Notes under the pieces: generated by a model
Seen by the model: the letters and a program-made list of their open reading frames with translations, nothing else
Told to the model about the DNA's origin: nothing
The model's database searches: none
Source of the DNA: a virus
Lineage: Duplodnaviria > Heunggongvirae > Uroviricota > Caudoviricetes
Direction: 5' to 3' (one strand)
IMG/VR virus record: IMGVR_UViG_2541047721_000003
DNA length: 26,524 nt
Program-made: the position numbers and the translations under genes
Part shown: positions 2,958-26,524 of the stretch, one piece after another
Numbering within the stretch: the stretch's first letter is position 1
How the letters are laid out: each line of letters opens with the position of its first letter

Positions 2958-3589
2958 CGTACAGCCTCCGCAATCCGGCCCAGCACCGTGTTATAAATCA
3001 GGCGCTCATCTGCCTGGCTGATACCCAACAGCTCACGTACCGGGTAATCGGTGAAAATGCCCGGCGCAACCTGATCGCGCTCACCGAACTGATGAACGCG
3101 TGCAATACGTGCGGCCACGCCGCTGTAACCTACCGTCACACCGGAGGCATCTGCACGGGCTTTCAGGTAGCGGGCGGTGCGCAGTTTTACGAACATGGGG
3201 ACGCGCTTTGTGCTGTCCTGGTTGATGCGCCGGGTGCGTATTTCCAGAAAACGGTCGATGTCATCCCGGTAAAACGTGCGGATATTGTTTTTATCCTCAT
3301 CCCACCCGGTGATGGTTCGCCCGTATTTCCCCGTGTCGTGATGCCAGTTTTTCAGCGTGCGTGCTTCGTTATTCCAGATAAAGCGAATGCGTTCCTGTAT
3401 CCGGGTTACGCGGCGTCTGCGTGGTGTCCACGCGGTCCCGTCCGGCGCTTTCTGTGACCGGATACGCGCCTGCTGGGCGCGGCGTAAATCCTGTGCCAGC
3501 TTTCTGGCGATGTTATTGATGGCCTGCTGATTCAGGCTGTCGCGGATGGCCTCAAAGGTTTCATCCACGCGGGTGAATGCCTTATCCAT
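2954..3589 (-). CDS. S: Tail completion / virion morphogenesis protein gpS-like
   Basis: Follows R and overlaps its 3' end, as R/S do in P2. Contains an HQFG..PG.F..YP segment typical of the gpS family. Start ambiguous: ATG 3589 or GTG 3598. Longer than P2 gpS (about 150 aa). Confidence 0.65.
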   Translation of the reverse strand: MDKAFTRVDETFEAIRDSLNQQAINNIARKLAQDLRRAQQARIRSQKAPDGTAWTPRRRRVTRIQERIRFIWNNEARTLKNWHHDTGKYGRTITGWDEDKNNIRTFYRDDIDRFLEIRTRRINQDSTKRVPMFVKLRTARYLKARADASGVTVGYSGVAARIARVHQFGERDQVAPGIFTDYPVRELLGISQADERLIYNTVLGRIAEAVR

Positions 3590-13702: not shown

Positions 13703-13718
13703 TGGGGCTGTCCTTTTT
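13691..13718. terminator. Bidirectional intrinsic terminator between convergent Q and the 174-aa gene
   Basis: 8-bp perfect stem ACAGCCCC/GGGGCTGT (13691..13698 / 13704..13711) with loop GTGAT, flanked by an A-run upstream and a T-run downstream. The Q stop codon lies in the loop. Confidence 0.6.
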
Positions 13719-14241
13719 ACCAGAGTTGAACCATTTTCTGGGTGCCGTCAGGCTTGAGATTATCAATTTCAGAGAGAACGTAATATTGAATGGCTTCACA
13801 AACGGTGGTGTAGGGGGAATTACCTTCTTTAAGTGGCACGATATTATTATTAACGCGAACCTGTATTTCATCGTTATACATTGCGATCGAAACAGGCGTG
13901 TGCACGAACGCGACTTCGCCAGGTGTGTCGTCAACCACCGTTTCAATACTAAAAGTCAGTTTTCGCTCATCATTGCTGCCCCGTGCTTTGGGGGTAGCGG
14001 CAGGGATCTGGGATAAAGGCATTCTGCGAAATCCTTCGGCTGCTTCCAGTCCGCATGAAACGTAATGCTGGCGATTACCGTCGCTATCTGTCCAGGTCTG
14101 TGATGGCAGCTCCAGCGAGATTTCATAAGCATCAACAATGCCCTGGGCAAGGCGTACAAGCGGGGTCAGATCTTCATTGCGGCGAAAGCTCTCCTTTACC
14201 TGCTCCCGTTTTTCTCTTAACTGCTTGTAATTAATGACCAT
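13717..14241 (-). CDS. Hypothetical protein, about 174 aa (cargo gene between portal gene and cos-like region)
   Basis: ATG at 14241 with GGAGG RBS 7 nt upstream; the track's 14280 start is GTG. Lower GC than flanking structural genes by eye. No recognisable motif. Confidence 0.5.
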   Translation of the reverse strand: MVINYKQLREKREQVKESFRRNEDLTPLVRLAQGIVDAYEISLELPSQTWTDSDGNRQHYVSCGLEAAEGFRRMPLSQIPAATPKARGSNDERKLTFSIETVVDDTPGEVAFVHTPVSIAMYNDEIQVRVNNNIVPLKEGNSPYTTVCEAIQYYVLSEIDNLKPDGTQKMVQLW

Positions 14242-14340
14242 AAGACAGCCTCCATTGATTTCTTTGCTCGTATTTTGCACTTATGAAGTATGGTCGGCAA
14301 GGTGCCGTATCGCTGACGCGCTTCGCTTGTCTGCTGCTTC

Positions 14341-14369: not shown

Positions 14370-14627
14370 TCTCCAGCTCCTGTATCAATCAGATAATTTC
14401 ACGACGCCTTCCAGTTTATCGCCACCATCGACGGTCAGACTCTTACGCAATTCCACCGCGTTGACTGCATGTTCTCGCTGCCTCAGTGCGATTTTGACGG
14501 CCTTACCTTTCACCCCATCAAATCAAAAGCCCTCACGCCTTTTTCATGCTCAGCGTGAGAAATATGGCCATTCTGTTGTGTCTCTGCGACATCGTTCAGG
14601 GAATGCTATTTACCCCCTGAAACGCGG

Positions 14628-14651
14628 GCTGTTCCCCCGTCACCTGCGCGC
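14628..14651. other. Candidate cos (cohesive end) region
   Basis: GCTGTTCCCCCGTCACCTGCGCGC partly resembles the reverse complement of the P2/186 cos core (GGCG(A/T)GGCGGGGAAAGCA, recalled from memory). Orientation relative to Q is as expected. Unverified. Confidence 0.3.
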
Positions 14652-14740
14652 AGAAAAAACGCGTTTTTTTGTGCACGCACGGATCCCTGACGGATCCAGC
14701 CGCCACGCGGGCCGGAAGGGCAAAAAGTCGTTCAAAAAAA

Positions 14741-14767
14741 TTGTGCAAATTTGTGCACTATTGTGCA
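14741..14767. repeat. Three tandem TTGTGCA iterons with exact 10-bp spacing (a fourth copy at about 14669)
   Basis: TTGTGCAAAT TTGTGCACTA TTGTGCATTG read directly. Adjacent to the AAAAAACGCGTTTTTT palindrome (14653..14669) and the ACGGATCC direct repeat. Confidence 0.5.
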
Positions 14768-14775
14768 TTGAAATA

Positions 14776-14797
14776 AACGCCCTGGAAGAGGGCGTTT
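14776..14797 (-). terminator. Intrinsic terminator of the minus-strand operon ending at 14808
   Basis: Stem AACGCCCT/AGGGCGTT with loop GGAAG, about 10 nt after the stop of the 112-aa gene, followed on the minus strand by a T-rich tract. Confidence 0.55.
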
Positions 14798-14807
14798 TGG
14801 CTCATTT

Positions 14808-15146
14808 CTATAGCTTTGATGCAGGCTGGGCTAGGTCTCCTTTGATGCCAGTGTTTACAACCTGACAAGCCTCTTTGAGTACCCAGTCAACAGCGTCTTT
14901 CCATGCTCCGGTTTCGGCTGGCGGATTCTCACGCTTTACCAGTTCATAGAATCGTACTGCTCTAACCAGTCCATCTGACGGTTTTGCCTGTAGTGCAGCC
15001 TGAGCTATGCGGTATGCCTGGAGCATACGGGCGTCGTTGATATCCATTCCGAACGGAATTTCTGATGATTGTGATTCTGCATCTTCAAGCCTGGCAATTT
15101 CTTTACGTAAAAAGTATTTCAACTCTTGTTTTTGTTTTCTGTTCAT
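14808..15146 (-). CDS. Hypothetical protein, 112 aa (co-operonic with the ClpX-ZBD-like gene)
   Basis: ATG at 15146 overlaps the stop of the upstream gene (ATGA). Predicted largely helical and charged. No recognisable motif. Confidence 0.55.
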
Positions 15147-15475
15147 GCGTTTTTTCCCTTTTTGTCTGTCACTTCTCTCCTGATAATTTCATTGCACAAA
15201 TCCACGCACTCATTGCAGATGCAAACAGACGGTCCGGCAATCACCTTTGTGACTTCGTACTGAGATTTATTGCAGAAGCTGCAATAAATCGTCTCCTCGC
15301 CTGAAGTCCATGTTTTGCTGGTTTCGCCAGACATCAGTTGTTTGAGGTCTTTTTCACGACGAAGAACTATCTGGCCACATTCAGCTATTTTTTGGATGTT
15401 GACATTTTCTTCTTTCGCCAGCGCTTCCATCCGCTCAATCAGTCGCTGCGCTTTTTCTCTGTCAATGTGTTGCAT
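15143..15475 (-). CDS. Small protein with C-terminal ClpX-type C4 zinc-binding domain (zf-C4_ClpX-like), N-terminal coiled-coil-like region
   Basis: 110 aa, ATG at 15475 with AAGGGGGA RBS. Segment [35 protein letters not shown] closely parallels the E. coli ClpX N-terminal zinc-binding domain ([32 protein letters not shown], from memory), including the CxxC...CxxC spacing. Confidence 0.7.
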
Positions 15476-15538: not shown

Positions 15539-15850
15539 TTATTCGGGAAATAACGCCCTGATATTTCCGGCCATCCGACTGGTTATCTGTGAGGTTGGTA
15601 CTGGCTGTGACGCGGGGCGTTCTGTCCTGGTTTGTGTCACTGATAACGCCTCATCGTCAGCCCATGCAGCCAGTCGGTAAGCCTCTGCCGGATTCATTTT
15701 CAGAAGTGCCAGCCCGGCCAGAAAAGCCACACGTTGGCCGCTTTTGCGGGCTTCTGGTGTAAGGCTGTCCAGCCAGGTGCATGCTTCGCCTTCGTTCTTG
15801 ACGGCGGCGGGCTTCAGATAGAAACTTATCCGTCTGGTTGGTGTCGTCAT
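15539..15850 (-). CDS. parR: ParR-like centromere-binding adaptor (RHH)
   Basis: 103 aa from ATG 15850 (AAGGAG RBS), 4 nt after the parM stop. RRISFYLKP...AFLAGLAL...ALFPE parallels plasmid R1 ParR (RTIAFKLNP...ALTAGLAL...SLFPKE, from memory). Confidence 0.68.
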   Translation of the reverse strand: MTTPTRRISFYLKPAAVKNEGEACTWLDSLTPEARKSGQRVAFLAGLALLKMNPAEAYRLAAWADDEALSVTQTRTERPASQPVPTSQITSRMAGNIRALFPE

Positions 15851-15854
15851 TGGT

Positions 15855-16814
15855 TTACTCCTTGTCCATTGCGTACAGCCCATTAACCAGAGCAAACTGT
15901 GGCACCCCGTCCGCGATGAAAGTCGCATTAACTCCGCAGGCTTCGCGGATAGCGGGTGCCACAATCTCCGCCCCGCCACCGACAACCATCACCCGCCCGT
16001 AACCCGAAAAACCCGCCAGCGCGCGGATCACTCGTTGTTTCAGTGTTTCTTCCTTTTCACGAATAACCGCCATCAGGCTGTCGTAATGCGCGTCATTGTG
16101 GATGTGCTGGCGCAGCCAGGCTTCATCATGGCGATGTTCGATAATGGTATTGGCGATGTGGTGACTGGTGCGCATACCGTTAGTGGCCATCACCGACAGT
16201 ACGGCATCGGCCATCAGAGAAACGCCTACGTGTGGATCGCAAAACACCTGGCTGATACCTGCCAGTTGCCCCTGAACCTTTGCCACATCCAGCGTGGTTC
16301 CGCCCAAATCCACAATCAGCAGGGATTCAAACGGACTCATGTCAGCCAGTGCCTTAAAGCCAGCCGGAATGGATTCAGGCATAACCCGCACGTTACGGAT
16401 AGTGAATGCTTCGCCGTTCTGGTACTCCACCGGGCGCATAACGTTCGCTTTTTTGCGGTTGATGTTGGCCATGTCCGGCTGTGCGTTTGTGTCGAAATAC
16501 TCGCTCAGTGGCAGGGTGACAACCACATCCACCTCCTGTGGCGTGATGCCTGATTTGACCAGCGCGTGATGAATGGCAATTACATTCACATCGCTGTACT
16601 GGTATTGCGTGTCGGTCGTCTGGACAAATCGAACGCTGACCGGATCAAAACCATAGCGCACGCCATCAAGCATGTAGTTTGCGGGCTGCATGCCACCGAA
16701 CGGCGCAGACCATTCCGATTTGAAGCTGTTCGGGCTGATGGCGTTGCGGCGTTCGCCGTTCTCAGTCCATGCCAGCTTGATGTTGGTGGAGCCGTCGTCG
16801 ATACAAATTTTCAT
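15855..16814 (-). CDS. parM: ParM/StbA-like actin-type segregation ATPase
   Basis: 319 aa. MKICIDDGSTNIKLAW N-terminus and segments ISPNSFK, YSDVNV..HHAL, VMPE.IPAG, LLI.DLGGTTLD, GVSL, V.GGGAE, LVNG closely parallel R1 ParM (about 320 aa, from memory). AAGGA RBS. Confidence 0.85.
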   Translation of the reverse strand: MKICIDDGSTNIKLAWTENGERRNAISPNSFKSEWSAPFGGMQPANYMLDGVRYGFDPVSVRFVQTTDTQYQYSDVNVIAIHHALVKSGITPQEVDVVVTLPLSEYFDTNAQPDMANINRKKANVMRPVEYQNGEAFTIRNVRVMPESIPAGFKALADMSPFESLLIVDLGGTTLDVAKVQGQLAGISQVFCDPHVGVSLMADAVLSVMATNGMRTSHHIANTIIEHRHDEAWLRQHIHNDAHYDSLMAVIREKEETLKQRVIRALAGFSGYGRVMVVGGGAEIVAPAIREACGVNATFIADGVPQFALVNGLYAMDKE

Positions 16815-16845: not shown

Positions 16846-16956
16846 TTTACGGGGTTTTTAAATCCCGTTTTTGCCTGTTTTATGCGCGCTTCATATATCG
16901 CGGCGCGTTTTTTGCTCATTTACGGGTTTTGTGAATCCCGTTTCTGTCTGTTTTTT
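16846..16956. repeat. parC-like region: two about 38-bp direct repeats flanking a putative promoter
   Basis: TTTACGGGGTTTTTAAATCCCGTTTTTGCCTGTTTTAT (16846..16883) and TTTACGGGTTTTGTGAATCCCGTTTCTGTCTGTTTTTT (16919..16956), each with an ACGGG...CCCGT inverted sub-element. Lies immediately upstream of parM and overlaps the last codons of A. Confidence 0.5.
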
Positions 16957-19713
16957 GTTTCCACTGGTCAGGCTACCCCGCAGCAGGTCTGCTTTGCGGC
17001 GGGCGCGTTCAGTGGTTTCACTGATTCTCTGTGCGTGCTCTGCGTCACGGATGGCGCGCAGCATGTCAGAAAGCACGGTAACGGGGGTTTTCATGGTGTT
17101 CTGGTCCTGCTGAAGTGTGGATGCCAGGCGTGCGGCGGCTTCGGGGTCTGATGCCCCCAGCTGTTCCAGATAGCCGGCGACCGGGTTATGGCGGATCTCC
17201 GTGCTGCTTACGCCGTGATTACGGCTCAGGCGCTGCCAGAGCTGCGTGATTCGGCTGTCCGGGCGGGTATCCGGTTTGCGTACAATTTCAAATCCCTGCG
17301 GTGCAATGATGCTGCCGTCAACGTACAGGCTGCCGCCCCGTAACAGGTGCTGCATCTGCTGTTCACCGATATGCAGGCCGAGAGATTCGGCAGACTCCCG
17401 CCATTCTTTAGCGAGTAATTCGTGGTTATCAGGCAAAGGCCGCTGCTGTTTGCGGCTCTGTGTCCAGCTCTGCATTTCATCACTGCTGTTTTTTGCCTGT
17501 TTATCATGAAGCGAACGCATCAGCGCCCGGCGTTCGTGCCGTTTCAGTGAGCGCATCCATTCGTTCACTTCAACGCCATCAGGGAGCTGCGGCCACGGTG
17601 CTGGCCGTTCTTCCGGCTGTTCTGCCCCGTTGTTGTTCGTTTCCTGTACACGGGGACAGTTATTGCCACGAGTCCAAGGGGCGGCAGGGCCGCCCTGAAG
17701 GTCAAAACCATTTTCGCGGGCGCTGTCTTCCGTTTCCGGTTTACGTCTTACCAGTTTCCAGTTATCCGGATGCGTGCACACACGGGAGGATTCCCCGATG
17801 AGTGGTGACCAGATCCCGTAAATCTGTACGCTCTGTTCGCCGTAATCATTCAGCTCATCTGCGAGGTCGTAGGCGGTGCGAATCAGGTAGTCTTTGCGTG
17901 GAACAAGTACGCCGCCCTGTTTTTCAATGTAGGTGGCAAAACACCCGGCATCGGCGGCAGCGAGTACCGCATCCATTGCGTCATCTTTCAGTCGTTGCGG
18001 GCCTTCCGGGTTGCGTGCCATCTGGCTGGCAAGGCGGCGCAGTTCACGCCACACCTGACGGGAGGGGATGCCAAAGAACTGGAACTGGCGGACCCGATGA
18101 AGGCGCGCCCAGCCGATGGCGCGCTCCACACTCTCGGCCATTGATTTTCCGGTTTCGTGGTCAACGCGTGGCTTGCCCGTTTTCGGGTCGATGCCATCCA
18201 CGGCGCGGCTGTCCAGGTTCTTTCCGATGTAGGTCGCGATATAGCTGGTTGGTGTGCCTTTTGAGCCGTCGACGTACTCCGCTTTAAAACGCGGAGTTAT
18301 GTCATCGCCCAGCTCGTGGCGGTCTTCCTGAATGGCAATATCGCAGACGTGGGACACGATGGTTTCAATCTCGTCCGGATGTGCAAAGACCATCATATGC
18401 CAGTGCACAGTGCCGTCATGGTGAGGCTCCACCGTGCGGATGCCATACCAGCGAAGACCGTCGCGGTTCAGTTTTTTGCGGACCGCCGCAAAAAAAGTGT
18501 TAACCAGGTAATCGCTGGAGTCGCGCATGGTGGCCCCGTTCCATTTGGGATTCGGATGACCGTTCTCCGTTGTTGCGTGGTATTTTGACGGGCAGGTAAC
18601 GGTCAGAAACACCGCTCTGTCGCTACGGGCTTCGGCCAGAAGTTCCAGTCCCTTCATGGTGGCCATCATTTCTGCCTTACGGTGAACCGGGTTACTTACT
18701 CCCGCGTAATACACTGTCTCGAGATCAATCGTGAACCCGTCTTCATTTTCCAGCATGAAACTTTTCAGGAAATCGCGTGTTTTCTCGCGCTGTGCGCGAA
18801 ACTCGCTTAACGCGTCCTGGCTCAGATAGGGCGATGTTTTTCTGGAAACCAGACAGGCGGCGCGGAGTTGTTCTTCCCGCCACTCGCAACGTAACAGCCA
18901 CAGTTTGCGTTTCCACCATTCCGCACAGGTCAGGCGAAGGATTGCGCCCGGCAGCAGTTCTGTGTCCGGTTCGTTCCTCCGGTCTTTGTCTGTTGTCAGT
19001 GCGTCATAATGCGGAGGCATGGCGTGCAAGTGTAACGCCATGCGGGCTAGCATCTGATACGCCTTCAGCGTTACATCCATGGTCAGCTCGCCATCAGTCG
19101 CGCCAAAACCATCGCAGAGTTTTTCGAAGGTGCTGCTGAACATCGCCGCCGTCATGGTGGCCAGCGTCTGTATCTGGTGTTTGTTGAGTTGCGGCAGGTA
19201 AAGCAAATCGTCCAGGCGTTCGCGTCCGGCAAGGGACCGATAACCCGGTGTCAGCCAACGGCTGTCGGTGCGGTCCAGACGTACGAATATTTTGCGCAGG
19301 GTTCCGCGCGCGTAGCGTTCAGCCTGCCAGCTCTTTTTGCCTTTCTGGCGATCGGCTTCCTGTTTTTTGCGCAGGAAGGAGAGGTGGCGAATAAGCGGAT
19401 CGCGCAGATAGGACGGCAGCAGGCGCAGCGAGGCCATGGCTTCATCCACCGCGCCGCGTGCCTGTTTTCTGGCGTCTCCTGCCAGTGTGATGGTTTTGTC
19501 CTGTTTTTCCTGTGCGTCCAGGTTTTTATTAATCAGGTTGCCCAGCGGCGTTGCGGAGAACGCCGCATCAGCCATTTCCTGGCGGCGCTCGTTCTCTGCC
19601 CGGTAGGCATCCAGCCAGGAGGAAAGCGCGGATTCAGGTGCGGGGATCCCCGTTCCTTCACGCCCCACTGCGTGGCGCGGTTGTTGCCAGTCCCTGATGT
19701 ACTCTGCCGTCAT
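16891..19713 (-). CDS. A: Replication initiation endonuclease gpA (rolling-circle, HUH superfamily)
   Basis: 940 aa. HUH-type motif VHWHMMVF and paired catalytic tyrosines Y-x3-Y (SYIATYIGK, about residues 491/495 by manual count), as in the P2 A protein. Longer than P2 gpA (about 761 aa). Confidence 0.85.
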   Translation of the reverse strand: MTAEYIRDWQQPRHAVGREGTGIPAPESALSSWLDAYRAENERRQEMADAAFSATPLGNLINKNLDAQEKQDKTITLAGDARKQARGAVDEAMASLRLLPSYLRDPLIRHLSFLRKKQEADRQKGKKSWQAERYARGTLRKIFVRLDRTDSRWLTPGYRSLAGRERLDDLLYLPQLNKHQIQTLATMTAAMFSSTFEKLCDGFGATDGELTMDVTLKAYQMLARMALHLHAMPPHYDALTTDKDRRNEPDTELLPGAILRLTCAEWWKRKLWLLRCEWREEQLRAACLVSRKTSPYLSQDALSEFRAQREKTRDFLKSFMLENEDGFTIDLETVYYAGVSNPVHRKAEMMATMKGLELLAEARSDRAVFLTVTCPSKYHATTENGHPNPKWNGATMRDSSDYLVNTFFAAVRKKLNRDGLRWYGIRTVEPHHDGTVHWHMMVFAHPDEIETIVSHVCDIAIQEDRHELGDDITPRFKAEYVDGSKGTPTSYIATYIGKNLDSRAVDGIDPKTGKPRVDHETGKSMAESVERAIGWARLHRVRQFQFFGIPSRQVWRELRRLASQMARNPEGPQRLKDDAMDAVLAAADAGCFATYIEKQGGVLVPRKDYLIRTAYDLADELNDYGEQSVQIYGIWSPLIGESSRVCTHPDNWKLVRRKPETEDSARENGFDLQGGPAAPWTRGNNCPRVQETNNNGAEQPEERPAPWPQLPDGVEVNEWMRSLKRHERRALMRSLHDKQAKNSSDEMQSWTQSRKQQRPLPDNHELLAKEWRESAESLGLHIGEQQMQHLLRGGSLYVDGSIIAPQGFEIVRKPDTRPDSRITQLWQRLSRNHGVSSTEIRHNPVAGYLEQLGASDPEAAARLASTLQQDQNTMKTPVTVLSDMLRAIRDAEHAQRISETTERARRKADLLRGSLTSGNKKQTETGFTKPVNEQKTRRDI

Positions 19714-19719
19714 AGTGAT

Positions 19720-20085
19720 TTACTTCGTCATGCCATTCAGGGTGTCGCGGCAGACTGTAGCCAGCCGCTGAATTTCCAGCACGGTGTCTTCTGTGTCGGC
19801 ATGGCGATGTGTGATGCGGATGCTGTCGGCAATCACATCGACGATTGCAGAGGATGGGCGCTGGTAAATGCCAATAACGGACGGGGTGCCACCTTCAATG
19901 CGGTAAAGCCTGTAATTTCCCTCGTGGCTGTCAATCATGTAGCGACCATCAATAACAATCTTTCCGTCAGCGAGCTGCGGTACAGGCAGGGATTTCAGGT
20001 ACATGTCATAACGATCACGCACGCGAGCGGCAAGATCACGTTCTGTGTTGAGCAGGTATTCAAGAAAGTCGTTGGCGAGAATCAT
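19720..20085 (-). CDS. Hypothetical early protein, 121 aa
   Basis: ATG start; stop 7 nt upstream of the A start. No recognisable motif. Confidence 0.5.
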   Translation of the reverse strand: MILANDFLEYLLNTERDLAARVRDRYDMYLKSLPVPQLADGKIVIDGRYMIDSHEGNYRLYRIEGGTPSVIGIYQRPSSAIVDVIADSIRITHRHADTEDTVLEIQRLATVCRDTLNGMTK

Positions 20086-20157
20086 TGCGGCAATCCTCTT
20101 GTTACAGATGTGCGAAGGCCTCCCGCCGCAAGGTGCAGGAAAGGCCCGGAACAGGAA

Positions 20158-20388
20158 TTAATGGAGTTTGTTTTGCTGCTGGAAGAGTTGTTGCAGCTCG
20201 CGCAGATCATCCGCCAGATAGCTGAAAACAGAGGCGGAATAGATGTTCGATAGCGCGTGGCTGCGCTCATGCAGCATATTGATGTGCATGATTTGCGCGA
20301 CGCGTGATGCGCGGAAAAGTCTACGGTTGATTTCAGTCTGGATGTGACGACGCTCCGCGATAGCGCGGCGCTGTTTGCGGTTTGCCAT
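20158..20388 (-). CDS. Hypothetical early protein, 76 aa (basic N-terminus)
   Basis: ATG at 20388 with AAGGGG RBS. N-terminal MANRKQRRAIAERR suggests nucleic-acid binding. Unverified. Confidence 0.45.
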   Translation of the reverse strand: MANRKQRRAIAERRHIQTEINRRLFRASRVAQIMHINMLHERSHALSNIYSASVFSYLADDLRELQQLFQQQNKLH

Positions 20389-20565
20389 GGTGTGGCCCCT
20401 TGTGTAGTAAGTTGTGAAAACTCACCATCCAGAGCTGCGAAACTGTGGGTGGCGAGACGTACGAGGTTCGCAGTACCGGCTACACAAGAACCCGGCCCGA
20501 CCGAAGTCGGCCCCGTACGCCCCGCCATAATTCTGACGCGAAAAAAACGTGGCAATACAGTACGC

Positions 20566-20588
20566 ACAAAAAAACCGCTGGCGCGGTT
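20566..20588 (-). terminator. Intrinsic terminator (minus strand)
   Basis: Stem AACCGC/GCGGTT with a 4-nt loop, followed on the minus strand by a run of 8 T (A-run 20567..20574 on plus). Confidence 0.55.
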
Positions 20589-20725
20589 GTGCGCTTGTGT
20601 AGTCAGCAGGCTGCGAAACCCGGCACCCGTTTTATGAGGTGCAGCGAGAATGTAACCTGACTGATTGCGGCATGGCAAGCGGTTTTTTTGTGAGAACGGC
20701 ATACTAAAAAAATCCTGATACTGCT

Positions 20726-20750
20726 CCGGCCAGCGATTTTCACTGGCCGG
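20726..20750. terminator. Hairpin immediately after the SPFH gene stop (possible bidirectional terminator)
   Basis: 8-bp stem CCGGCCAG/CTGGCCGG with a 9-nt loop, 6 nt downstream of the TAA at 20757..20759. T-rich on the plus side; the T-run on the minus side is displaced by about 15 nt. Confidence 0.45.
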
Positions 20751-20756
20751 GTTTAA

Positions 20757-21587
20757 TTACTTCACCGGAACAAACGGAACAGCGGTGTTGCTGGTCATGT
20801 ATTGCGGCAGCGTGCCGTTCCATTTGTTGATTGCTTCCAGCTCCATAACGCCGGGATTCTGGCGCAGAGCTTCACCGCGTAAACGAATGGCGTCGGCTTC
20901 AGCCTGGGCTTTTGTGCGAATGGCATCGGCTTGTCCGGCAGCTTCTGCGCGCAGCATGTTGGCTTCAGCTTCGCGTTGCTTGACTTCCTGTTCACGTTGC
21001 AGGGTTTTCTGGTTTGCCGTGACTTTGGCATTAATGCTGTCGATAACGGTTGGTGGGTATTCCGGCTTACCCACATAAGAGAGGCTCATTACCTGAATGC
21101 CGATAGGTGTCATTTCTGCCTGAATGTCTTTAAGTGCTGAATCCAGCAGTTCAGACTTGCCACCGTCGATAAATTTATCGGTGGTCATTTTGCTGGCCAG
21201 TCGGTTGAGTGCGTCGGCGATCTTCTGGCGCAGGTCAGTGTCGGTAATGTCGTCCACGCCTTTGCGGTAGGTCTGAAACACCGTGGTAACTTTGGATGGA
21301 TCAACTTTGTAGGCCACGCCGATGTGATAGCCGATGGTTGTGCCGTCACTCATCTGGAAGTTGAACGGCTCATCGTAAGTCTTCATTTGTTTGAAAGTCG
21401 GGAAGATGTAAACCTCTGTATTCCAGCCTGTCCAGTAGCGGCCAACGCCAACTACTTCGCCGACGCCTTTGTCGTCGCCCAGTTTGTTGACTTTGATTCC
21501 CACATTACCTGGCTCAACGCGATCGCAACCAACCAGCAGGATGGCGGCAAAAAGCGGGAGAATCTGAAAGAGTTTGAATTTCTTCAT
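20757..21587 (-). CDS. SPFH/band-7 (stomatin/prohibitin/HflKC-like) lipoprotein
   Basis: 276 aa. N-terminal signal with lipobox (ILLVGC). Central region consistent with an SPFH domain. C-terminal Ala/Glu/Gln/Arg-rich coiled coil (QREQEVKQREAEANMLRAEAAGQADAIRTKAQAEADAIRLRGEA) typical of HflK/HflC/YqiK-type proteins. ATG overlaps the stop of the upstream small gene. Confidence 0.78.
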   Translation of the reverse strand: MKKFKLFQILPLFAAILLVGCDRVEPGNVGIKVNKLGDDKGVGEVVGVGRYWTGWNTEVYIFPTFKQMKTYDEPFNFQMSDGTTIGYHIGVAYKVDPSKVTTVFQTYRKGVDDITDTDLRQKIADALNRLASKMTTDKFIDGGKSELLDSALKDIQAEMTPIGIQVMSLSYVGKPEYPPTVIDSINAKVTANQKTLQREQEVKQREAEANMLRAEAAGQADAIRTKAQAEADAIRLRGEALRQNPGVMELEAINKWNGTLPQYMTSNTAVPFVPVK

Positions 21588-21787
21588 TGCTTGATTTCCT
21601 TGATGTACTTACTGAAAAGGCGAACAACGCCTGCCGGGTACAGCATGGCAATGAAAATGCCCAGCAATACCAGGAAGGAGCTGTCTGATGAAATCATTCG
21701 GGGGAGTAGTCCTGCATACAGAATGAAAGAGACGAGGACGCATACCAGCGCCCACATGTATGCGCGAAACCAGGTCTTTTTGTTCAT
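21584..21787 (-). CDS. Small membrane protein, 67 aa, two predicted TM helices (possible NfeD-like partner of the SPFH protein)
   Basis: Hydrophobic segments WALVCVLVSFILYAGLL and FLVLLGIFIAMLYPAGVV. ATGA overlap on both sides. Confidence 0.55.
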   Translation of the reverse strand: MNKKTWFRAYMWALVCVLVSFILYAGLLPRMISSDSSFLVLLGIFIAMLYPAGVVRLFSKYIKEIKQ

Positions 21788-22002
21788 GTTGATTGCTCTC
21801 TTTTGTTATTCAGGAAAAAGTCAAAAACGTTATCGATGCGCATCATGAGTTCGCGCTGCATCGCTTCTGGTGTTTCCGGTTCACCAGGCGACCCCAGCGT
21901 TGCGCAGAAATCAGCGATCTCGTGTTGAATGAGTTCTTTCAGCGTCGGTAAGGAATTCATGTGTGTGCGGCGATGCCTGCGTGTGATTCGCCTTCTGCTC
22001 AT
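21784..22002 (-). CDS. Hypothetical protein, 72 aa
   Basis: ATG start with ATGA overlaps on both sides (operon member). Basic N-terminus (MSRRRITRRHRR). Confidence 0.45.
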   Translation of the reverse strand: MSRRRITRRHRRTHMNSLPTLKELIQHEIADFCATLGSPGEPETPEAMQRELMMRIDNVFDFFLNNKREQST

Positions 22003-22202
22003 TTACGCTGCTCCTGTACCTGTCGGATAAGGTTTACCCGCGCCACATTAGTGGCGCAGAAGTAAGTGCCGTCAGTGAGGTAGATGTGGTGTGCATCCTT
22101 TTCCGAACGATGTTTGTCGATAGTGGTAATCAGGCGTTCGTCGACCTCGTATTCGCGCCCTCTGGAGGTAAAGCGAACGACGGGAAAATGCTTAATTGCC
22201 AT
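21999..22202 (-). CDS. Hypothetical protein, 67 aa
   Basis: ATG at 22202 with AAGGGGG RBS. First gene of the overlapping four-gene series ending with the SPFH gene. Confidence 0.45.
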   Translation of the reverse strand: MAIKHFPVVRFTSRGREYEVDERLITTIDKHRSEKDAHHIYLTDGTYFCATNVARVNLIRQVQEQRK

Positions 22203-22225
22203 TGCGCCCCCTTTGCCCAGTAACC

Positions 22226-22636
22226 CTATGCGTTAAATACGGTGCACTGTGCGTCATCAATGAATGCGACTTGAGAGCGCTCTATCAGGCGGAGATTTGT
22301 CAGAATTTCTGATTCCCTTATGGGGTGAGGAGTGATCAGGTATTTATCCTGTAACCCGGCGATAATGGTGTATCGCTGTAGCTCCGAGCCAATTGTGTAA
22401 ATAAGGCGTCCGGTGTTAGACAAATCCAGTCCGGTGACGGGTTGTGTTCTGAGAACCGCCAGTTCAGCATCCTGTTTTGCGATAATTTCGGCTGCTTCTG
22501 CCGTGACTCTTGCGACTATCAGTGTGTGGGTTGCGACGTCCATATGATTATTTGCTATGGCTTTTTTCGCTACTACGTTTTCTGTCTTTGAAATTTCTTT
22601 CAGTGCTCTGATGATACCTTCTTCTTTTGCGTGCAT
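22226..22636 (-). CDS. Hypothetical early protein, 136 aa
   Basis: ATG at 22636 with GGAGAT RBS. No recognisable motif. Confidence 0.5.
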   Translation of the reverse strand: MHAKEEGIIRALKEISKTENVVAKKAIANNHMDVATHTLIVARVTAEAAEIIAKQDAELAVLRTQPVTGLDLSNTGRLIYTIGSELQRYTIIAGLQDKYLITPHPIRESEILTNLRLIERSQVAFIDDAQCTVFNA

Positions 22637-22704
22637 TTTTGTATCTCCGTTATTTGCGTGTGCGAATACCTCCGTTAATACGGATGGTTTTCTCGTTTTC
22701 TTAT

Positions 22705-22842
22705 TTAATTTGATGTTTTATTTGTATCGTTATTCACCAGTGAAAAACGTTCAATCTTTTTTACTGAATGAATAATTCGCATAATTCCAATAGCGCAGGC
22801 CACCGAAATAATCAGAACAAGCCATGAGATAAATATACTCAT
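22705..22842 (-). CDS. Small hydrophobic peptide, 45 aa (single predicted TM helix)
   Basis: Not in the ORF track (too short). ATG at 22842 overlaps the stop of the upstream gene (ATGA). Manual translation MSIFISWLVLIISVACAIGIMRIIHSVKKIERFSLVNNDTNKTSN. AT-rich. Confidence 0.3.
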   Translation of the reverse strand: MSIFISWLVLIISVACAIGIMRIIHSVKKIERFSLVNNDTNKTSN

Positions 22843-23081
22843 GCGATATTCCCCAGCTTATACGGTTCAATATGTTCCCCGCATTCTGCGGCACAGATCA
22901 GCTCGGAAAGTTCGTTAAGTGCATCCAGATCATCAGCGTAAAAAGCCACGTCATACAGACTCCGGATTGCCCTGGTCAATGAGTCACGGGCTGCACGTTC
23001 AGCATGAGCGCCTGATGCACTTAAGCGAAAATAAAAACGCTCAAGTGCTTTGTTAATGAGAGTTTTATATTCTTTGCCCAT
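22839..23081 (-). CDS. Hypothetical early protein, about 80 aa
   Basis: ATG at 23081, 12 nt after the upstream stop; the track's 23132 start is TTG. Confidence 0.45.
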   Translation of the reverse strand: MGKEYKTLINKALERFYFRLSASGAHAERAARDSLTRAIRSLYDVAFYADDLDALNELSELICAAECGEHIEPYKLGNIA

Positions 23082-23092
23082 CGCAACGCCCT

Positions 23093-23371
23093 TTAATCTG
23101 CTTTCTGAATTTCTGCTTCTGAATCCATACAAATAATTTCGATATAGGGTTCATCGCCATTAGTCTTACGTGCTTTTTCCGCTTCGCTAATGATTTCGTG
23201 TACAGTCTGGTACGGAAGTTCTACGGTCAGGCGCGTGCCGTTCAGATAAACGTAAGTAGCTGCATTTTTTTCGGATGGAACGACTCCATCAATAGCTGAT
23301 GCGCGTAATAACAGTTCACCGCGAAAATCAATAAAACGAATAAATACACCTTGTGCATGCTCTTTGGTCAT
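23093..23371 (-). CDS. Hypothetical early protein, about 92 aa
   Basis: ATG at 23371 (MTKEHAQGVFIRF...), 11 nt after the upstream stop; the track's 23431 start is TTG. Confidence 0.45.
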   Translation of the reverse strand: MTKEHAQGVFIRFIDFRGELLLRASAIDGVVPSEKNAATYVYLNGTRLTVELPYQTVHEIISEAEKARKTNGDEPYIEIICMDSEAEIQKAD

Positions 23372-23381
23372 AAAGCACCTG

Positions 23382-23732
23382 TTATAAATCAGCCTGTTTA
23401 ATAAAACTTTGTCCGCGAAGCAGACGATCAACTGTGCGAAGTGCTTCGTACAATGTGAAATCCTGCCCGAACTGATTGTCGCCGTTGCTCAGTGCAAAAA
23501 TGCGGTTTCCGGTAAATGGGTTGCGCTGGCATCTGTGAACCACGATTCCTGCTTTTTCAATCAGCCAAGTGTGTTCACCAATTTGTTTTACTGGGTAGCC
23601 ATCCGGCGTTGCGTGTGTTTCGCTCAGGCTGTAGCGAGAGTTGCTACGTGATGCACTGGTAGCGAAACGGTTAGCATGGCGTTCCGCACCGTTGCGGAAG
23701 CGCTGCTGTGAAGAATTGCGCTGTAGTTTCAT
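23382..23732 (-). CDS. Hypothetical early protein, 116 aa
   Basis: ATG at 23732. First gene after the AT-rich insert, in the position where P2/186-type phages carry small early regulators. Confidence 0.5.
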   Translation of the reverse strand: MKLQRNSSQQRFRNGAERHANRFATSASRSNSRYSLSETHATPDGYPVKQIGEHTWLIEKAGIVVHRCQRNPFTGNRIFALSNGDNQFGQDFTLYEALRTVDRLLRGQSFIKQADL

Positions 23733-23869
23733 ATTAAAACTCTGTACCTTCGGTAAGGTGTACTCGTGTCACCTTGTATTGATTTGTGGTATTTTTTTTG
23801 TGTGTCTAGGACTTGGACTGGCCGGTTCAGGTCCTGGCTTATGTTTAATTAAATTGTTAAGAGGTTTTC

Positions 23870-24061
23870 ATGTCAGAAGATAAAAAAGTTGTTAATTTGT
23901 TGAGTGAACTTAGTGCTGCTCTGGATAACATTAACCCTCCCAGGGTAAAAACGACGGGTGATAAAGACGCATTAAACACAGAGATTCATATATTACTGGC
24001 GTTAGTAACTGACAAAATTCAGCGTAAATACCCACCTGTCACACAACTGGTTGATTTTTAA
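23870..24061 (+). CDS. Hypothetical protein, 63 aa (plus strand, convergent with the 140-aa gene)
   Basis: ATG at 23870 with AAGAGG RBS 5 nt upstream. AT-rich. Own upstream region 23733..23869. Confidence 0.45.
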   Translation: MSEDKKVVNLLSELSAALDNINPPRVKTTGDKDALNTEIHILLALVTDKIQRKYPPVTQLVDF

Positions 24062-24067
24062 TTTGAT

Positions 24068-24490
24068 TTATGCCGGGCTGCTCCCGGCATCTTCTAGCTG
24101 CCATAATGTCTCGTCACCTGATAGAGCAAAACGAAATGAGTGAAGTATATCCCCCCGAGAGAAGCTCACGGCTACAGCTGCGGGAAAGTCAAATATAATC
24201 CCACCTTCATTTTTAAAACGATTACGCAATTGATAGGCTATCGGTTTGATTTGTGCAGGAAGAGTATCTATATCTCTTCCATTGACAACAGAATCTTTGT
24301 TTTCAAGTACTGATTTAGCGATTAGATATAGATGCCAGTAACTGGTTACAATTGTTACTCCTGTGATGTGTCGTAAATTAATTGCAATTCGTCCGTTATT
24401 ATGTTTTTCCGCAAGGTATTTCAGGTTATCAATTAATGCTTGGTCATTTTTTGAAATAGTTATTGTGAAATCTGACGTGTTTGTTTTCAT
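24068..24490 (-). CDS. Hypothetical protein, 140 aa (AT-rich cargo gene)
   Basis: ATG at 24490, 5 nt after the stop of the Cox-position gene. Rough manual count about 36% GC over 24241..24480. The 221-aa version from ATG 24733 overlaps the upstream gene and is low-complexity. Confidence 0.5.
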   Translation of the reverse strand: MKTNTSDFTITISKNDQALIDNLKYLAEKHNNGRIAINLRHITGVTIVTSYWHLYLIAKSVLENKDSVVNGRDIDTLPAQIKPIAYQLRNRFKNEGGIIFDFPAAVAVSFSRGDILHSFRFALSGDETLWQLEDAGSSPA

Positions 24491-24494
24491 ACGA

Positions 24495-25016
24495 TTAGTT
24501 GCCTCTGTTGTTTCTGAGTTGGTCCAGTTTTGAGCTTCTGCCTGTATAAACTCGCTTACCGTTAATGGTCTGGCAGTCTTCTTTATTAGCTGGAGAGAAC
24601 TTCCTTTTCTGGCGGTCATACGTCCAGTAACTTTTCCAGTTGTGCCATTCTGGGGGCTCGTGCTCTGGTAGCTCATCAGCCAACTTGTCCCACTCTTTGG
24701 CGTTAAACCACCATACTCCGTCTGAGTTTTCATCTTCCGGGTTTGTGCGCGTCTTGTGTCCCGGCATTTGACCGCGATGAATGGCTACGCGCAGTGCAGA
24801 TTTTGTTAGCCCAATATATGCCGCGCCTTTTTCCAGAGAGCAAAGCCCGGCGATCGGACCATCCAGCCGCAAAGTCGCTCCTTTTTTGTAGGAACGCTTT
24901 TTCTTGTTTTCTTCGTGCTCGTCGTCGTTGGCGGCATCAATGGATCCGCTGAGTGCGTCACTTTCCTGAAGTGGTTGGTGGTCAGATAACTCTTTATCGG
25001 CAATGAAGTCCCGCAT
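24495..25016 (-). CDS. Early regulator in the Cox/Apl position (putative HTH DNA-binding protein; possible excisionase / switch regulator)
   Basis: 173 aa, ATG at 25016 with AAGAGG RBS. Divergent from the repressor gene across an about 100-bp switch region. HTH-like segment LTKSALRVAIHRGQMPG. Larger than P2 Cox (91 aa), so assignment is by position only. Confidence 0.5.
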   Translation of the reverse strand: MRDFIADKELSDHQPLQESDALSGSIDAANDDEHEENKKKRSYKKGATLRLDGPIAGLCSLEKGAAYIGLTKSALRVAIHRGQMPGHKTRTNPEDENSDGVWWFNAKEWDKLADELPEHEPPEWHNWKSYWTYDRQKRKFSPANKEDCQTINGKRVYTGRSSKLDQLRNNRGN

Positions 25017-25075
25017 TTGTTATCCTCTTGCGTTGGTGCGCTTGTCGCGCCTTGTGATGGTTTGTTTTGGCTTGT

Positions 25076-25131
25076 AAAGATAACCAAAAGGTTATCTTTG
25101 TGCGAGAGGTTAATACTCAAATGGTTATCTT
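25076..25131. promoter_or_regulatory. Immunity-switch operator candidates
   Basis: Perfect palindrome AAAGATAACC-AAAA-GGTTATCTTT (25076..25099) plus a third GGTTATCTT half-site at 25123..25131 overlapping the proposed C start codon. Confidence 0.5.
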
Positions 25132-25462
25132 GTCAATAGACTACGCAAAAAAGTTACGTCAGATACGTAAGGCGGAAGGGTTAACACAAAAGCAGTTTGC
25201 GGATATTACTGGGTTGTCTTTGGCAACCATAAGGAATTACGAATCGGGGCAAAAGAACGCTAGAGCAAAAATCGTTGAGGCGGTTCTGCAAGTCGATCGC
25301 TTTGAAAAATACATGCTGTGGCTAATAAAAGATAAGACGCTACCTGTCGCCGGGCAGATTGCTCCGGCTCTCTCTCTTGATGGATCTATTCAGTCGGAGG
25401 GCGATCAGGTTTCAATCGGTATTACCCAAAAATCACCCCGATCAGGCCGCAATGTTGGCTGA
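25121..25462 (+). CDS. C: Immunity repressor C (HTH, XRE-like)
   Basis: 113 aa from ATG 25121 (GAGAGG RBS); the track's 25067 start is TTG. HTH segment LTQKQFADITGLSLATIRNYESG. Upstream of and co-oriented with int, as in P2. Confidence 0.7.
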   Translation: MVILSIDYAKKLRQIRKAEGLTQKQFADITGLSLATIRNYESGQKNARAKIVEAVLQVDRFEKYMLWLIKDKTLPVAGQIAPALSLDGSIQSEGDQVSIGITQKSPRSGRNVG

Positions 25463-25531
25463 CTCTACACATTGAGCGAATTACATATCGCAAGGAGTGT
25501 TTAGTTAATTTATCCGTTGGAGGGGCTAATC

Positions 25532-26524
25532 ATGTCGATTAAGCAACTCAAAGACGGACGTTATCAGGTCGATGTCAGACCGCAGGGGGCGGAAGGAAAG
25601 CGGATTCGAAAAATCTTTGCCCTGAAATCAAAGGCTCAGGAGTTTGAGAAGTATGTGTTACAGAACTTTCATGACAAGCCATGGCAGGCTAAGCCAGCTG
25701 ATCAGCGGCGATTATCAGAGCTGCTTGATGCGTGGTGGATGCTTGATGGGCGTAATCAGGCTTACGGGGATAGCTACAGGGTTAGGCTAGGGAAGGTTGT
25801 TCGTGAAATGGGAGATCCTCGCGCCAGTCAGATGACGCGAAAATTTATGCTTGAATATCGGTCAGAGAAATTACAGGCCGGATTAATGCCGTCCAGTATT
25901 AATCGTGACTTATGCGTACTGTCTACCATGTTCACGGTGCTGATTGAAGCTGAGGTCTTTCACAACGCGAACCCTGTACGCGGTATACGAAAACTGAAAG
26001 TTCAGAACACAGAGATGGCCTTTCTTTCTGATGATGAGATTGAACGGCTTCTTGAGCGACTGGAGGGTGATGCGCGTCGTGTTGCCATTCTGTGTCTTTC
26101 TACTGGTGCCCGATGGAGTGAAGCATCGGAACTACGTGGAGAGCATATCGTTGGCAACCGGGTGACGTTCTTTAACACCAAAAACGGAAAATCCCGTTCG
26201 GTTCCTGTGGCGGATTCGGTCGTGCCTCTGATTAAAACCCGTCGAACGGGGTTATTGTATCAGGTTGATTATCTGAAGTTCCGGGAGATTCTTCAGGAGG
26301 TGAAACCGGATTTGCCGAAGGGGCAGGCTACGCATGTCATGCGTCATACATTTGCCACACACTTTATGATGAATGGCGGAAATATTGTTACGTTGCAACG
26401 AATCCTGGGGCACGCAACGATTCAGCAAACAATGACGTACGCTCATTTTTCGCCGGACTTTTTACTGGACGCGATCAACTTTAATCCGCTGGCTGAAAGT
26501 GTCCATAAACTGTCCATCGATTAG
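25532..26524 (+). CDS. int: Tyrosine integrase (P2 Int-like)
   Basis: 330 aa from ATG 25532 (GGAGGGG RBS); the track's 25517 start is TTG. C-terminal catalytic region HVMRHTFATHF...LGHATIQQTMTYAHF with the conserved R/H/Y context. Stop codon is the last three bases of the window. Confidence 0.9.
   Translation: MSIKQLKDGRYQVDVRPQGAEGKRIRKIFALKSKAQEFEKYVLQNFHDKPWQAKPADQRRLSELLDAWWMLDGRNQAYGDSYRVRLGKVVREMGDPRASQMTRKFMLEYRSEKLQAGLMPSSINRDLCVLSTMFTVLIEAEVFHNANPVRGIRKLKVQNTEMAFLSDDEIERLLERLEGDARRVAILCLSTGARWSEASELRGEHIVGNRVTFFNTKNGKSRSVPVADSVVPLIKTRRTGLLYQVDYLKFREILQEVKPDLPKGQATHVMRHTFATHFMMNGGNIVTLQRILGHATIQQTMTYAHFSPDFLLDAINFNPLAESVHKLSID

Follow-up and report, generated by a model that had tools for sequence, protein, structure and literature searches.

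The stretch of DNA analyzed here (IMG/VR record IMGVR_UViG_2541047721_000003, 26,524 nucleotides, henceforth the window) is a P88-like prophage of Escherichia coli (Xuanwuvirus, Peduoviridae, P2 family). Its early operon carries two adjacent genes, one for a 67-aa membrane protein with two transmembrane (TM) helices (21584..21787, − strand), henceforth the partner, and the other for a 276-aa lipoprotein of the SPFH/Band-7 type (20757..21587, −). The sequence-level statements of the original prediction were all confirmed, and its interpretation was supported in part. It had counted both genes in a module of four. The conserved functional unit consists, however, of two: the open reading frames (ORFs) upstream of the pair are variable and confined to P2-like loci, and a natural indel removes the partner and SPFH genes alone. 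Our favored reading, held with moderate confidence, is that the pair is a mobile two-gene cassette encoding a lipid-anchored SPFH assembly, which would be located on the periplasmic face of the inner membrane and work with the two-TM partner early in lytic growth.

The SPFH lipoprotein and its two-TM partner

The 276-aa protein is a genuine SPFH superfamily protein. It matches the Pfam profile PF01145 (Band_7) with E=4.2e-31 and 108.8 bits (cutoff, 23.6) over residues 23-209 (20961-21521, −), a match that covers profile positions 2-176 of 176. It also matches phrog_200, annotated as 'lipoprotein' (E=7e-112). The AlphaFold2 model, with a predicted local distance difference test score (pLDDT) of 75.7, has strands in residues 21-95, helices in 97-162, a strand in 164-176 and a helix in 179-243 (20859-21053, −). 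The last is one continuous helix of 65 residues, in agreement with the long coiled coil initially proposed. When the model was submitted to Foldseek, it matched over its full length the cage-forming proteins HflC/HflK, prohibitin, erlin, stomatin, flotillin and QmcA (E 6e-14 to 1e-8, probability 1.00). The family alignment delimits a conserved C-terminal tail (KWNG.LP...PF..K; 20760-20840, −) in which W256, N257, G258, P261, P271, F272 and K276 are invariant. In the monomer model, this tail has a pLDDT <50, as would be expected for a segment that becomes ordered only in an oligomer.

The N-terminus of the protein (MKKFKLFQILPLFAAILLVGC, followed by DR) shows a basic n-region, a hydrophobic core and an LVGC lipobox with Asp at position +2. 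The signal, MKKFK-LFQILPLFAAIL-LVGC (21525-21587, −), ends in the lipobox Cys21 and fits the pattern [LVI][ASTVI][GAS]C, so that the early assignment of the protein as an SPFH lipoprotein stands on both counts, Band_7 domain and lipobox. Signal peptides are unrelated among phage homologues, and the lipobox is nevertheless preserved in every homologue inspected. For a broader view, the family was divided into clusters at 50% identity (2,867 clusters at E<1e-3, 222 at E<1e-30). In 100 of 140 representatives, the lipobox Cys lies directly ahead of the first conserved strand; the others mostly have an N-terminal hydrophobic stretch or a fused two-TM segment instead. Asp+2 is present in 14 of 17 close homologues, and E or Y is found at this position in other enterobacterial-phage members.

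These lipoboxes, anchors and fusions, together with the Asp+2 of the copies found in enterobacterial temperate phages, point to an SPFH domain situated on the periplasmic side and anchored in the outer leaflet of the inner membrane. An inner-membrane location of the family is also supported by the members that seem to have a hydrophobic anchor and by the fused members: in the latter, a third hydrophobic segment comes after the N-in/C-in hairpin, and the SPFH domain would accordingly lie in the periplasm.

The 67-aa partner matches phrog_1130, annotated as 'membrane protein' (E=3e-22), and has hydrophobic segments at about residues 9-28 and 38-55, thus bearing out the two TM helices first proposed. 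The short turn between them (LLPRMISSDSS) carries Pro29 and Ser33 (window numbering), which are invariant in an alignment of 15 partner sequences, and the turn motif P-x-[LMF]-h-S is found in 56/56 homologues. The number of Lys plus Arg residues in partner homologues is about 2 in the N-tail, 0.9 in the loop and 3.4 in the C-tail. Because positive charges lie on the two tails and the turn is net neutral, the sequences indicate a hairpin of predicted N-in/C-in topology that would expose only about 9 residues to the periplasm.

The original prediction had likened the partner to the NfeD-type proteins often found with SPFH proteins. We rejected this assignment because Pfam assigns the partner to no family and detects no NfeD or OB-fold domain in it at E<=0.1; besides, two TM helices and short tails use up its 67 residues. 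The likeness is thus that of a small membrane protein encoded in an operon with an SPFH gene. The only sub-threshold Pfam hit, RseC_MucC (E=0.06), was taken as noise caused by TM composition.

Boundaries, setting and spread of the cassette

The boundaries of the cassette were revealed by a natural indel. Blastn comparison of the window with phage vB_EcoM-569R5 (ON470599) showed 97% identity over 17781-20692 and 99% over 21996-25749. In vB_EcoM-569R5, about 6 bp replace the segment 20693-21793 (−), which contains exactly the two-TM gene, the SPFH gene and a 3' hairpin. The original prediction would have been undermined by a module present in all relatives as a known replication or regulation gene; its absence from vB_EcoM-569R5 indicates otherwise, and the cassette is accessory. 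The GC-rich, 11-bp hairpin (20726..20750, −) lies directly past the SPFH stop codon. RNA folding gives −23.4 kcal/mol (z=−3.5), and none of 200 shuffled sequences was equally stable. The hairpin is not a canonical terminator because the T-run is found only 12 nt further on, and a terminator scan of the window did not call it.

Translational coupling of four ORFs, as initially described, was confirmed by three ATGA stop/start overlaps (22002-21999, 21787-21784 and 21587-21584), with a purine-rich stretch before each start. The two ORFs upstream of the pair are, however, ordinary and variable neighbors in the early operon. The first (67 aa, 21999..22202, −; phrog_3459, E=5e-45) is retained in the cassette-less phage vB_EcoM-569R5 at 99% identity. 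The second (72 aa, 21784..22002, −; phrog_4144, E=1e-28), which is related to the C-terminal part of Ead/Ea22-like proteins, is also retained there in a diverged form. The latter occurs in P2-like loci only, at 61-100% identity, and its P88 homologue is annotated as ead/Ea22-like.

The partner abuts the SPFH gene in 57 P2-like viral contigs, with identities of 70-100%. In 22 other viral contigs, which do not have the two upstream ORFs, the SPFH protein is 92-93% identical, its signal peptide is of another type and the neighbor is a 78-aa two-TM protein with 44% identity to the partner. When these other contigs (among L060-L082) were compared with window positions 20757-21787, the mature SPFH domain was found to be 92-93% identical, while the signal peptide and the partner belonged to different types. 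Because of this discrepancy, recombination breakpoints seem to exist inside the cassette, at the junction between signal peptide and mature protein. In phiP27 (L002, NC_003356), an unannotated 62-aa two-TM ORF of the partner family (MRLYFTIVILLAIIACIYGLLVPFLISMKDTIAVISGF...) was detected at about 3310-3500 (−), directly upstream of L05; the partner gene has probably been missed in the records of Stx2a phages too. In lambdoid prophages retrieved through partner homologues, a 4-nt overlap between the partner and Band_7 genes was found in 9/9 places, between the CI side and xis/int.

Fusion of partner and SPFH protein into one chain was detected in 17 of the 140 family representatives. A hidden Markov model (HMM) built from four phage partners matched the first 50-65 residues of 16 long representatives (330-390 aa) and the C-terminus of one more, with E values from 3e-8 to 3e-3 (best reversed-sequence control, 0.18). 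Scanning of viral contigs with P0150 yielded one partial match, and a scan with the fusion protein P0159 retrieved only distant, uninformative SPFH genes among the matches listed. Partner calls rest on tblastn and HMM matches; a 103-aa ORF found upstream of SPFH in many loci was discarded as spurious because it is out of frame. As a side observation, the partner-like two-TM segment of P0129 (344 aa) comes after the SPFH domain, an arrangement that would invert the topology of the hairpin. Alternatively, the genes may be reversed in order in this case and the chain an artefact of read-through or frameshift.

The pair lies inside the early (Pe) operon, between the cox side and the GPA gene and on the same strand, as anticipated. 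Upstream are int (25517+), a C-type helix-turn-helix repressor gene (25067-25462, +) and cox (24495-25016, −), followed by DUF4761, DUF4754 and small ORFs. Past the SPFH gene are found genes for a 'Derepression' protein, an Orf83-like ORF, the GPA replication endonuclease (16891-19713, −) and ParM. The P2 genome has no such gene between B and A, in agreement with the initial impression. A promoter scan detected no sigma-70-like match upstream of the partner gene or the SPFH gene, nor back to the region where the operon starts, and the start codon overlaps the preceding stop. Examination of the cassette for moron features revealed no promoter match of its own and a stable 3' hairpin without an adjacent T-run. 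No tRNA genes were found in the window. DNA identical to the window is present in human E. coli isolates, in which the SPFH gene is 100% identical and bears the PGAP name 'SPFH domain-containing protein'.

Tblastn searches against 50,697 phage records found full-length relatives of the SPFH protein in 380. Virulent carriers include N4-like phages of Erwinia and Stenotrophomonas, PVP-SE1-like Vequintavirinae, Bruynoghevirus, phiCbK-like Caulobacter phages, Lak megaphages and a crAss-like phage; SSU5-type phage-plasmids and Burkholderia phage phiE125 are further carriers. The two-TM/SPFH pair itself occurs in P2-like, lambdoid/Stx, SSU5-type, N4-like, Vequintavirinae, Bruynoghevirus, jumbo and alphaproteobacterial phages. 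A partner HMM match at <=1 kb upstream, in most cases abutting, was obtained in S6, Paxi, PVP-SE1, pEp_SNUABM_01, Ab22, phage 5400, SE_PL, SSU5, Ruegeria phage RpAliso and the environmental IMG/VR contigs L104 and L105. In all contexts examined, the neighbors are genes of the early or replication type (ligase, exonuclease, dUTPase, recombinase, ThyX), and neither lysis nor structural genes were found next to the pair. Because the family is present in lytic phages, and always among early or replication genes where examined, the pair must serve lytic development in general. Comparative genomics thus shows an early/middle lytic-cycle function common to temperate and virulent phages, and not a lysogeny-specific device.

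Proposed assembly and competing explanations

In the mechanism that we favor, the product of the first gene would fold into a hairpin whose two TM helices leave both termini in the cytoplasm. The product of the second gene would be exported, lipid-modified at Cys21 and kept on the periplasmic face of the inner membrane. By analogy with solved SPFH assemblies, it might then oligomerize through its long helix and conserved tail, giving rise to a ring or dome around a patch of inner membrane. The patch would hold the partner, whose invariant Pro/Ser turn could contact the SPFH assembly. As to the outcome, our first guess is that membrane proteins are shielded or sequestered from inner-membrane quality control of the FtsH/HtpX type, an activity that need not concern lysogeny. 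Slightly behind comes a second guess, that entry of secondary DNA is blocked during infection. Control of a holin-like partner and lysogenic conversion, in this order, would follow in our guesswork.

Several considerations weigh against this proposal. The evidence is computational throughout, and the physiological target is a guess. Lipid modification is predicted from the lipobox pattern, and oligomerization from homology alone, the AlphaFold2 model being that of a monomer. The residue at +2 is S, T, G, E or Y in other family members; in the window protein, the residue at +3 is Arg, which under the Lol-avoidance rules may weaken the inner-membrane retention conferred by Asp+2. In addition, the partner HMM found no match beside the most distant relatives (CcrRogue, L106 and L107), and gp44 of phiE125 resembles a partner in its motif only; the partner may therefore not be obligatory. 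Lastly, PM0222 (Pmorf0222), a 25-35 kDa SPFH protein that resembles HflK/C and is encoded by a lambda-like prophage of Pasteurella multocida, has been detected in outer-membrane vesicles of the lysogen (PMC9872710). If PM0222 is homologous, some members of the family are expressed by lysogens and leave the inner membrane.

A bolder formulation would be that the pair represents an undescribed, phage-wide two-component assembly of the inner membrane: facing the periplasm, with a non-NfeD partner, sometimes made as one fused chain, and deployed by virulent and temperate phages alike to wall off a membrane patch early in infection, whether to keep membrane proteins of phage or host safe from quality-control proteases or to bar further DNA entry. 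We offer this formulation tentatively, as it is rather doubtful in its full extent. If true, the two-component assembly would be a general phage strategy of host-membrane remodeling, reaching beyond one prophage.

Among the competing explanations, one is that the SPFH protein mimics HflK/C: it would engage host FtsH from the periplasm, alter substrate turnover and thereby tune lysogenization or induction, as the original prediction suggested by reference to CII-type control. An SPFH domain located in the periplasm, if the lipoprotein reading is right, would be placed like those of HflK/C. The best matches among solved structures are HflK by sequence (E=7e-4) and chain 7vhq_G of the HflK/C assembly by fold (E=6e-14). 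Furthermore, the pair of lambdoid prophages is found in the leftward early region, where lambda encodes its FtsH inhibitor, cIII. P2-type phages, however, decide between lysis and lysogeny by C versus Cox and not through a CII-like substrate of FtsH. The protein scores far under the NCBIfam equivalog cutoffs (24.8 bits versus 134.4 for hflC, 22.7 versus 159.4 for hflK), and matches to HflC, HflK and FloT are all sub-threshold; we thus discarded orthology with HflK or HflC. Identity with HflK/C, about 17%, does not exceed that with prohibitin or erlin. Instead of a TM-anchored K/C heteropair, the cassette has a single lipid-anchored SPFH gene whose neighbor encodes a 67-aa hairpin. Moreover, obligately lytic phages, in which there is no lysogeny decision to make, commonly carry the family and its partner; this distribution removes the lysogeny-specific FtsH/CII version. 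Although an FtsH link has been raised in the literature (PMC10269572, PMC8540360), we find the mimicry explanation unlikely. An effect on FtsH that is independent of lysogeny is possible, and forms part of the reading that we favor.

Superinfection exclusion or abortive infection, also contemplated from the start, would mean that, upon attack by a second phage, the membrane pair prevents DNA from entering or causes the death of the cell. Exclusion of secondary phages by membrane proteins and lipoproteins expressed early is well documented (T4 Imm and Sp, T5 Llp), and an accessory, mobile cassette is in keeping with such a role. Yet we know of no exclusion protein with an SPFH fold, and the phages that carry the family differ widely in their entry machineries. 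A search of PADLOC-DB v2 gave no usable match for the four proteins and three neighbors: the SPFH protein had none, and the two-TM protein had only a 14-bit match (E=0.007) without a significant stretch. The cassette is embedded in a repressed early operon and no promoter match was found for it, which speaks against a role in protecting the lysogen; together with the early-gene neighbors, the distribution in lytic phages leaves little of the argument for exclusion or abortive infection by a lysogen. In Vi01-like phages, on the other hand, an SPFH gene adjoins a gene annotated as superinfection exclusion protein (PMC3220722). On balance, we consider this explanation as unlikely as HflK/C mimicry, and what may survive of the two is an influence on FtsH of a general kind, or exclusion in the course of lytic growth.

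Another view is that the pair makes a regulated pore, with the partner as a holin- or pinholin-like effector and an SPFH assembly that restrains or times its oligomerization, thus affecting membrane potential or the timing of lysis. Class II holins and pinholins are small proteins with two TM helices, N-in/C-in topology and a basic C-terminus, and the partner has this shape: its size, topology and charged C-terminal tail match those of class II holins. Tight coupling and fusions show, in addition, that partner and SPFH protein act together. Neither Pfam nor PHROGs, however, gave a holin family match for the partner, and its conserved residues are found in the periplasmic turn. In the contexts examined, the partner was never within a lysis cassette; the pair was found among early and replication genes, with no annotated lysis neighbor. 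A pore is thus a distinctly improbable explanation.

Lysogenic conversion, in which the lipoprotein would be made by the lysogen and benefit the bacterium (envelope fitness, virulence or stimulation of TLR2), has a precedent in PM0222: the protein is detectable in lysogen cells and outer-membrane vesicles, and its deletion attenuates virulence (PMC9872710). The strains that host the window, being human E. coli isolates, would suit such a role. Nevertheless, PM0222 has been likened to the window family by description and not by sequence, no promoter match was found for the cassette, whose translation is coupled to that of early-operon genes, and the many virulent carriers are unexplained by a benefit to lysogens. 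We consider conversion less probable still than a pore.

The idea that all four overlapping ORFs make up one functional module is the least tenable: three consecutive ATGA junctions indicate translational coupling and the four ORFs are kept together in a subset of P2-like loci, but such overlaps are common across compact phage operons, the upstream two ORFs are missing from every non-P2 context of the pair and remain where the cassette is missing, and P88 has a winged helix-turn-helix protein and a longer Ea22-like protein that replace or separate them.

Known relatives and other features of the prophage

The SPFH gene is already annotated in P88, phiP27, Stx2a phages, SSU5, PVP-SE1 and others, under the names 'lipoprotein', 'SPFH domain protein' and, misleadingly, 'serine protease'. 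In P88, gp11 and gp12 ('membrane protein' and 'lipoprotein', 'putative SPFH domain protein') are the same genes as those of the window, with protein identities of 97% for the partner and 99% for the SPFH protein. The order of the P88 operon is also the same (cox ... Ea22-like, membrane protein, lipoprotein, derepression protein, A), and there is no difference of substance. The SPFH products of phiP27 L05 and of the 'serine protease' genes of Stx2a phages are about 92% identical to that of the window. In these lambdoid genomes, the pair is located near xis/int and the partner is a diverged, unannotated ORF. The name 'serine protease' can be discarded, as the homologues have no protease domain; it probably derives from the COG label 'membrane protease subunit'.

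Outside phages, the HflK/HflC-FtsH system shares with the SPFH protein the architecture of SPFH1/2 domains, coiled coil and C-terminal region, and faces the periplasm from the inner membrane. It differs in having a K/C heteropair, a TM helix as anchor and a protease as partner, where the window has one gene, a lipid anchor and a 67-aa hairpin. The QmcA-YbbJ operon of E. coli and the stomatin operon PH1511-PH1510 of Pyrococcus resemble the cassette in that an SPFH gene is co-transcribed with one for a small membrane protein, and QmcA is also a structural match (8z5g_A, E=1e-8). In both the window pair and the SPFH-NfeD operons, the small partner presumably resides inside or under the SPFH assembly. 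In SPFH-NfeD operons, however, the partner is an NfeD/OB-fold protein, whereas in the window the partner gene comes first, and partner-SPFH fusions are frequent in the family. In addition, QmcA faces the cytoplasm while the window protein is predicted to face the periplasm. An operon of SPFH gene plus small membrane partner, as in QmcA-YbbJ, is the closest described system in its logic, with differences in orientation, anchor and partner.

Functional analogies can be drawn with T4 Imm and Sp, T5 Llp and lambda CIII, which are non-essential proteins expressed early, with effects at the envelope or on host proteolysis; they have no sequence or fold relation with the window pair, and none is an SPFH protein. 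PM0222, in turn, differs in that it was studied as a host-directed virulence factor (a TLR1/2 agonist present in outer-membrane vesicles), and the comparison is by description only.

Genome papers, as late as 2026, describe the role of phage SPFH proteins as unclear (PMC13239085, PMC8540360), and those that had suggested a link with HflK/C-FtsH left it open (PMC10269572, PMC8540360). Our literature search found no functional study of an SPFH protein in the life cycle of a phage, only genome notes and the virulence paper on PM0222, and the conserved two-TM partner and the fusions were not described in the searchable literature. The latter is a weak sign of novelty. The feature under study is a catalogued, correctly annotated and widespread accessory cassette, a variant of the SPFH-plus-partner theme and not a new class of element.

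Its value is thus modest for the window itself and wider for the study of phage SPFH proteins in general. SPFH proteins are universal organizers of membranes whose cage structures have been solved only recently. Hypotheses on the phage members are narrowed by the existence of a dedicated, sometimes fused two-TM partner, by a likely periplasm-facing orientation and by membership in the early lytic program of both virulent and temperate phages. Since natural pairs of phages with and without the cassette exist and differ by 1.1 kb, its role is directly testable.

Other features of the prophage are worth mentioning. Between the SPFH gene and the 'Derepression' gene (20158-20388), Rfam detects two RNA genes: isrK (20642..20568, −; 65 bits) and the C4 antisense RNA (20532..20445, −; 83 bits). 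A sigma-70-like promoter match is found just upstream of each, and isrK also has a terminator, so that the SPFH gene is separated from the rest of the operon by isrK and C4 with promoter-like sites of their own. This stretch looks like an antirepressor control region of the P1 immI or Gifsy-1 isrK type within a P2-family early operon. A mechanically predicted ORF of 206 aa (20082..20702) covers both RNA genes, and its counterpart in ON470599 is annotated as a coding sequence, an annotation that is probably spurious.

Directly past gene A lies a plasmid-type partition pair (15539-16814, −) formed by a ParM/StbA actin-like ATPase (15855-16814) and a Plasmid_stab_B protein (15539-15985). The same two genes are present in P88. 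Integrating P2-like phages do not usually carry such a pair, which hints at an extrachromosomal phase. Between the portal and partition genes, a stretch of lower GC content includes a 110-aa ORF (15143-15475, −) with a ClpX-type C4 zinc finger (E=3e-16). Pfam gave no match for the ORFs at 13717-14280, 14461-14865 and 14808-15146, and the stretch around 15143-15475 could be a cargo region of the prophage.

In a 625-aa protein (4073-5950, −), DUF1737 and DUF6645 are found together with a SASA-type carbohydrate (sialate O-acetyl) esterase domain; the protein is presumably a receptor-modifying enzyme associated with the tail fiber. Finally, the GPA replication endonuclease has 940 aa, compared with about 761 aa in P2, and extends far beyond the Phage_GPA domain (residues 179-503) at both its N- and C-terminus.

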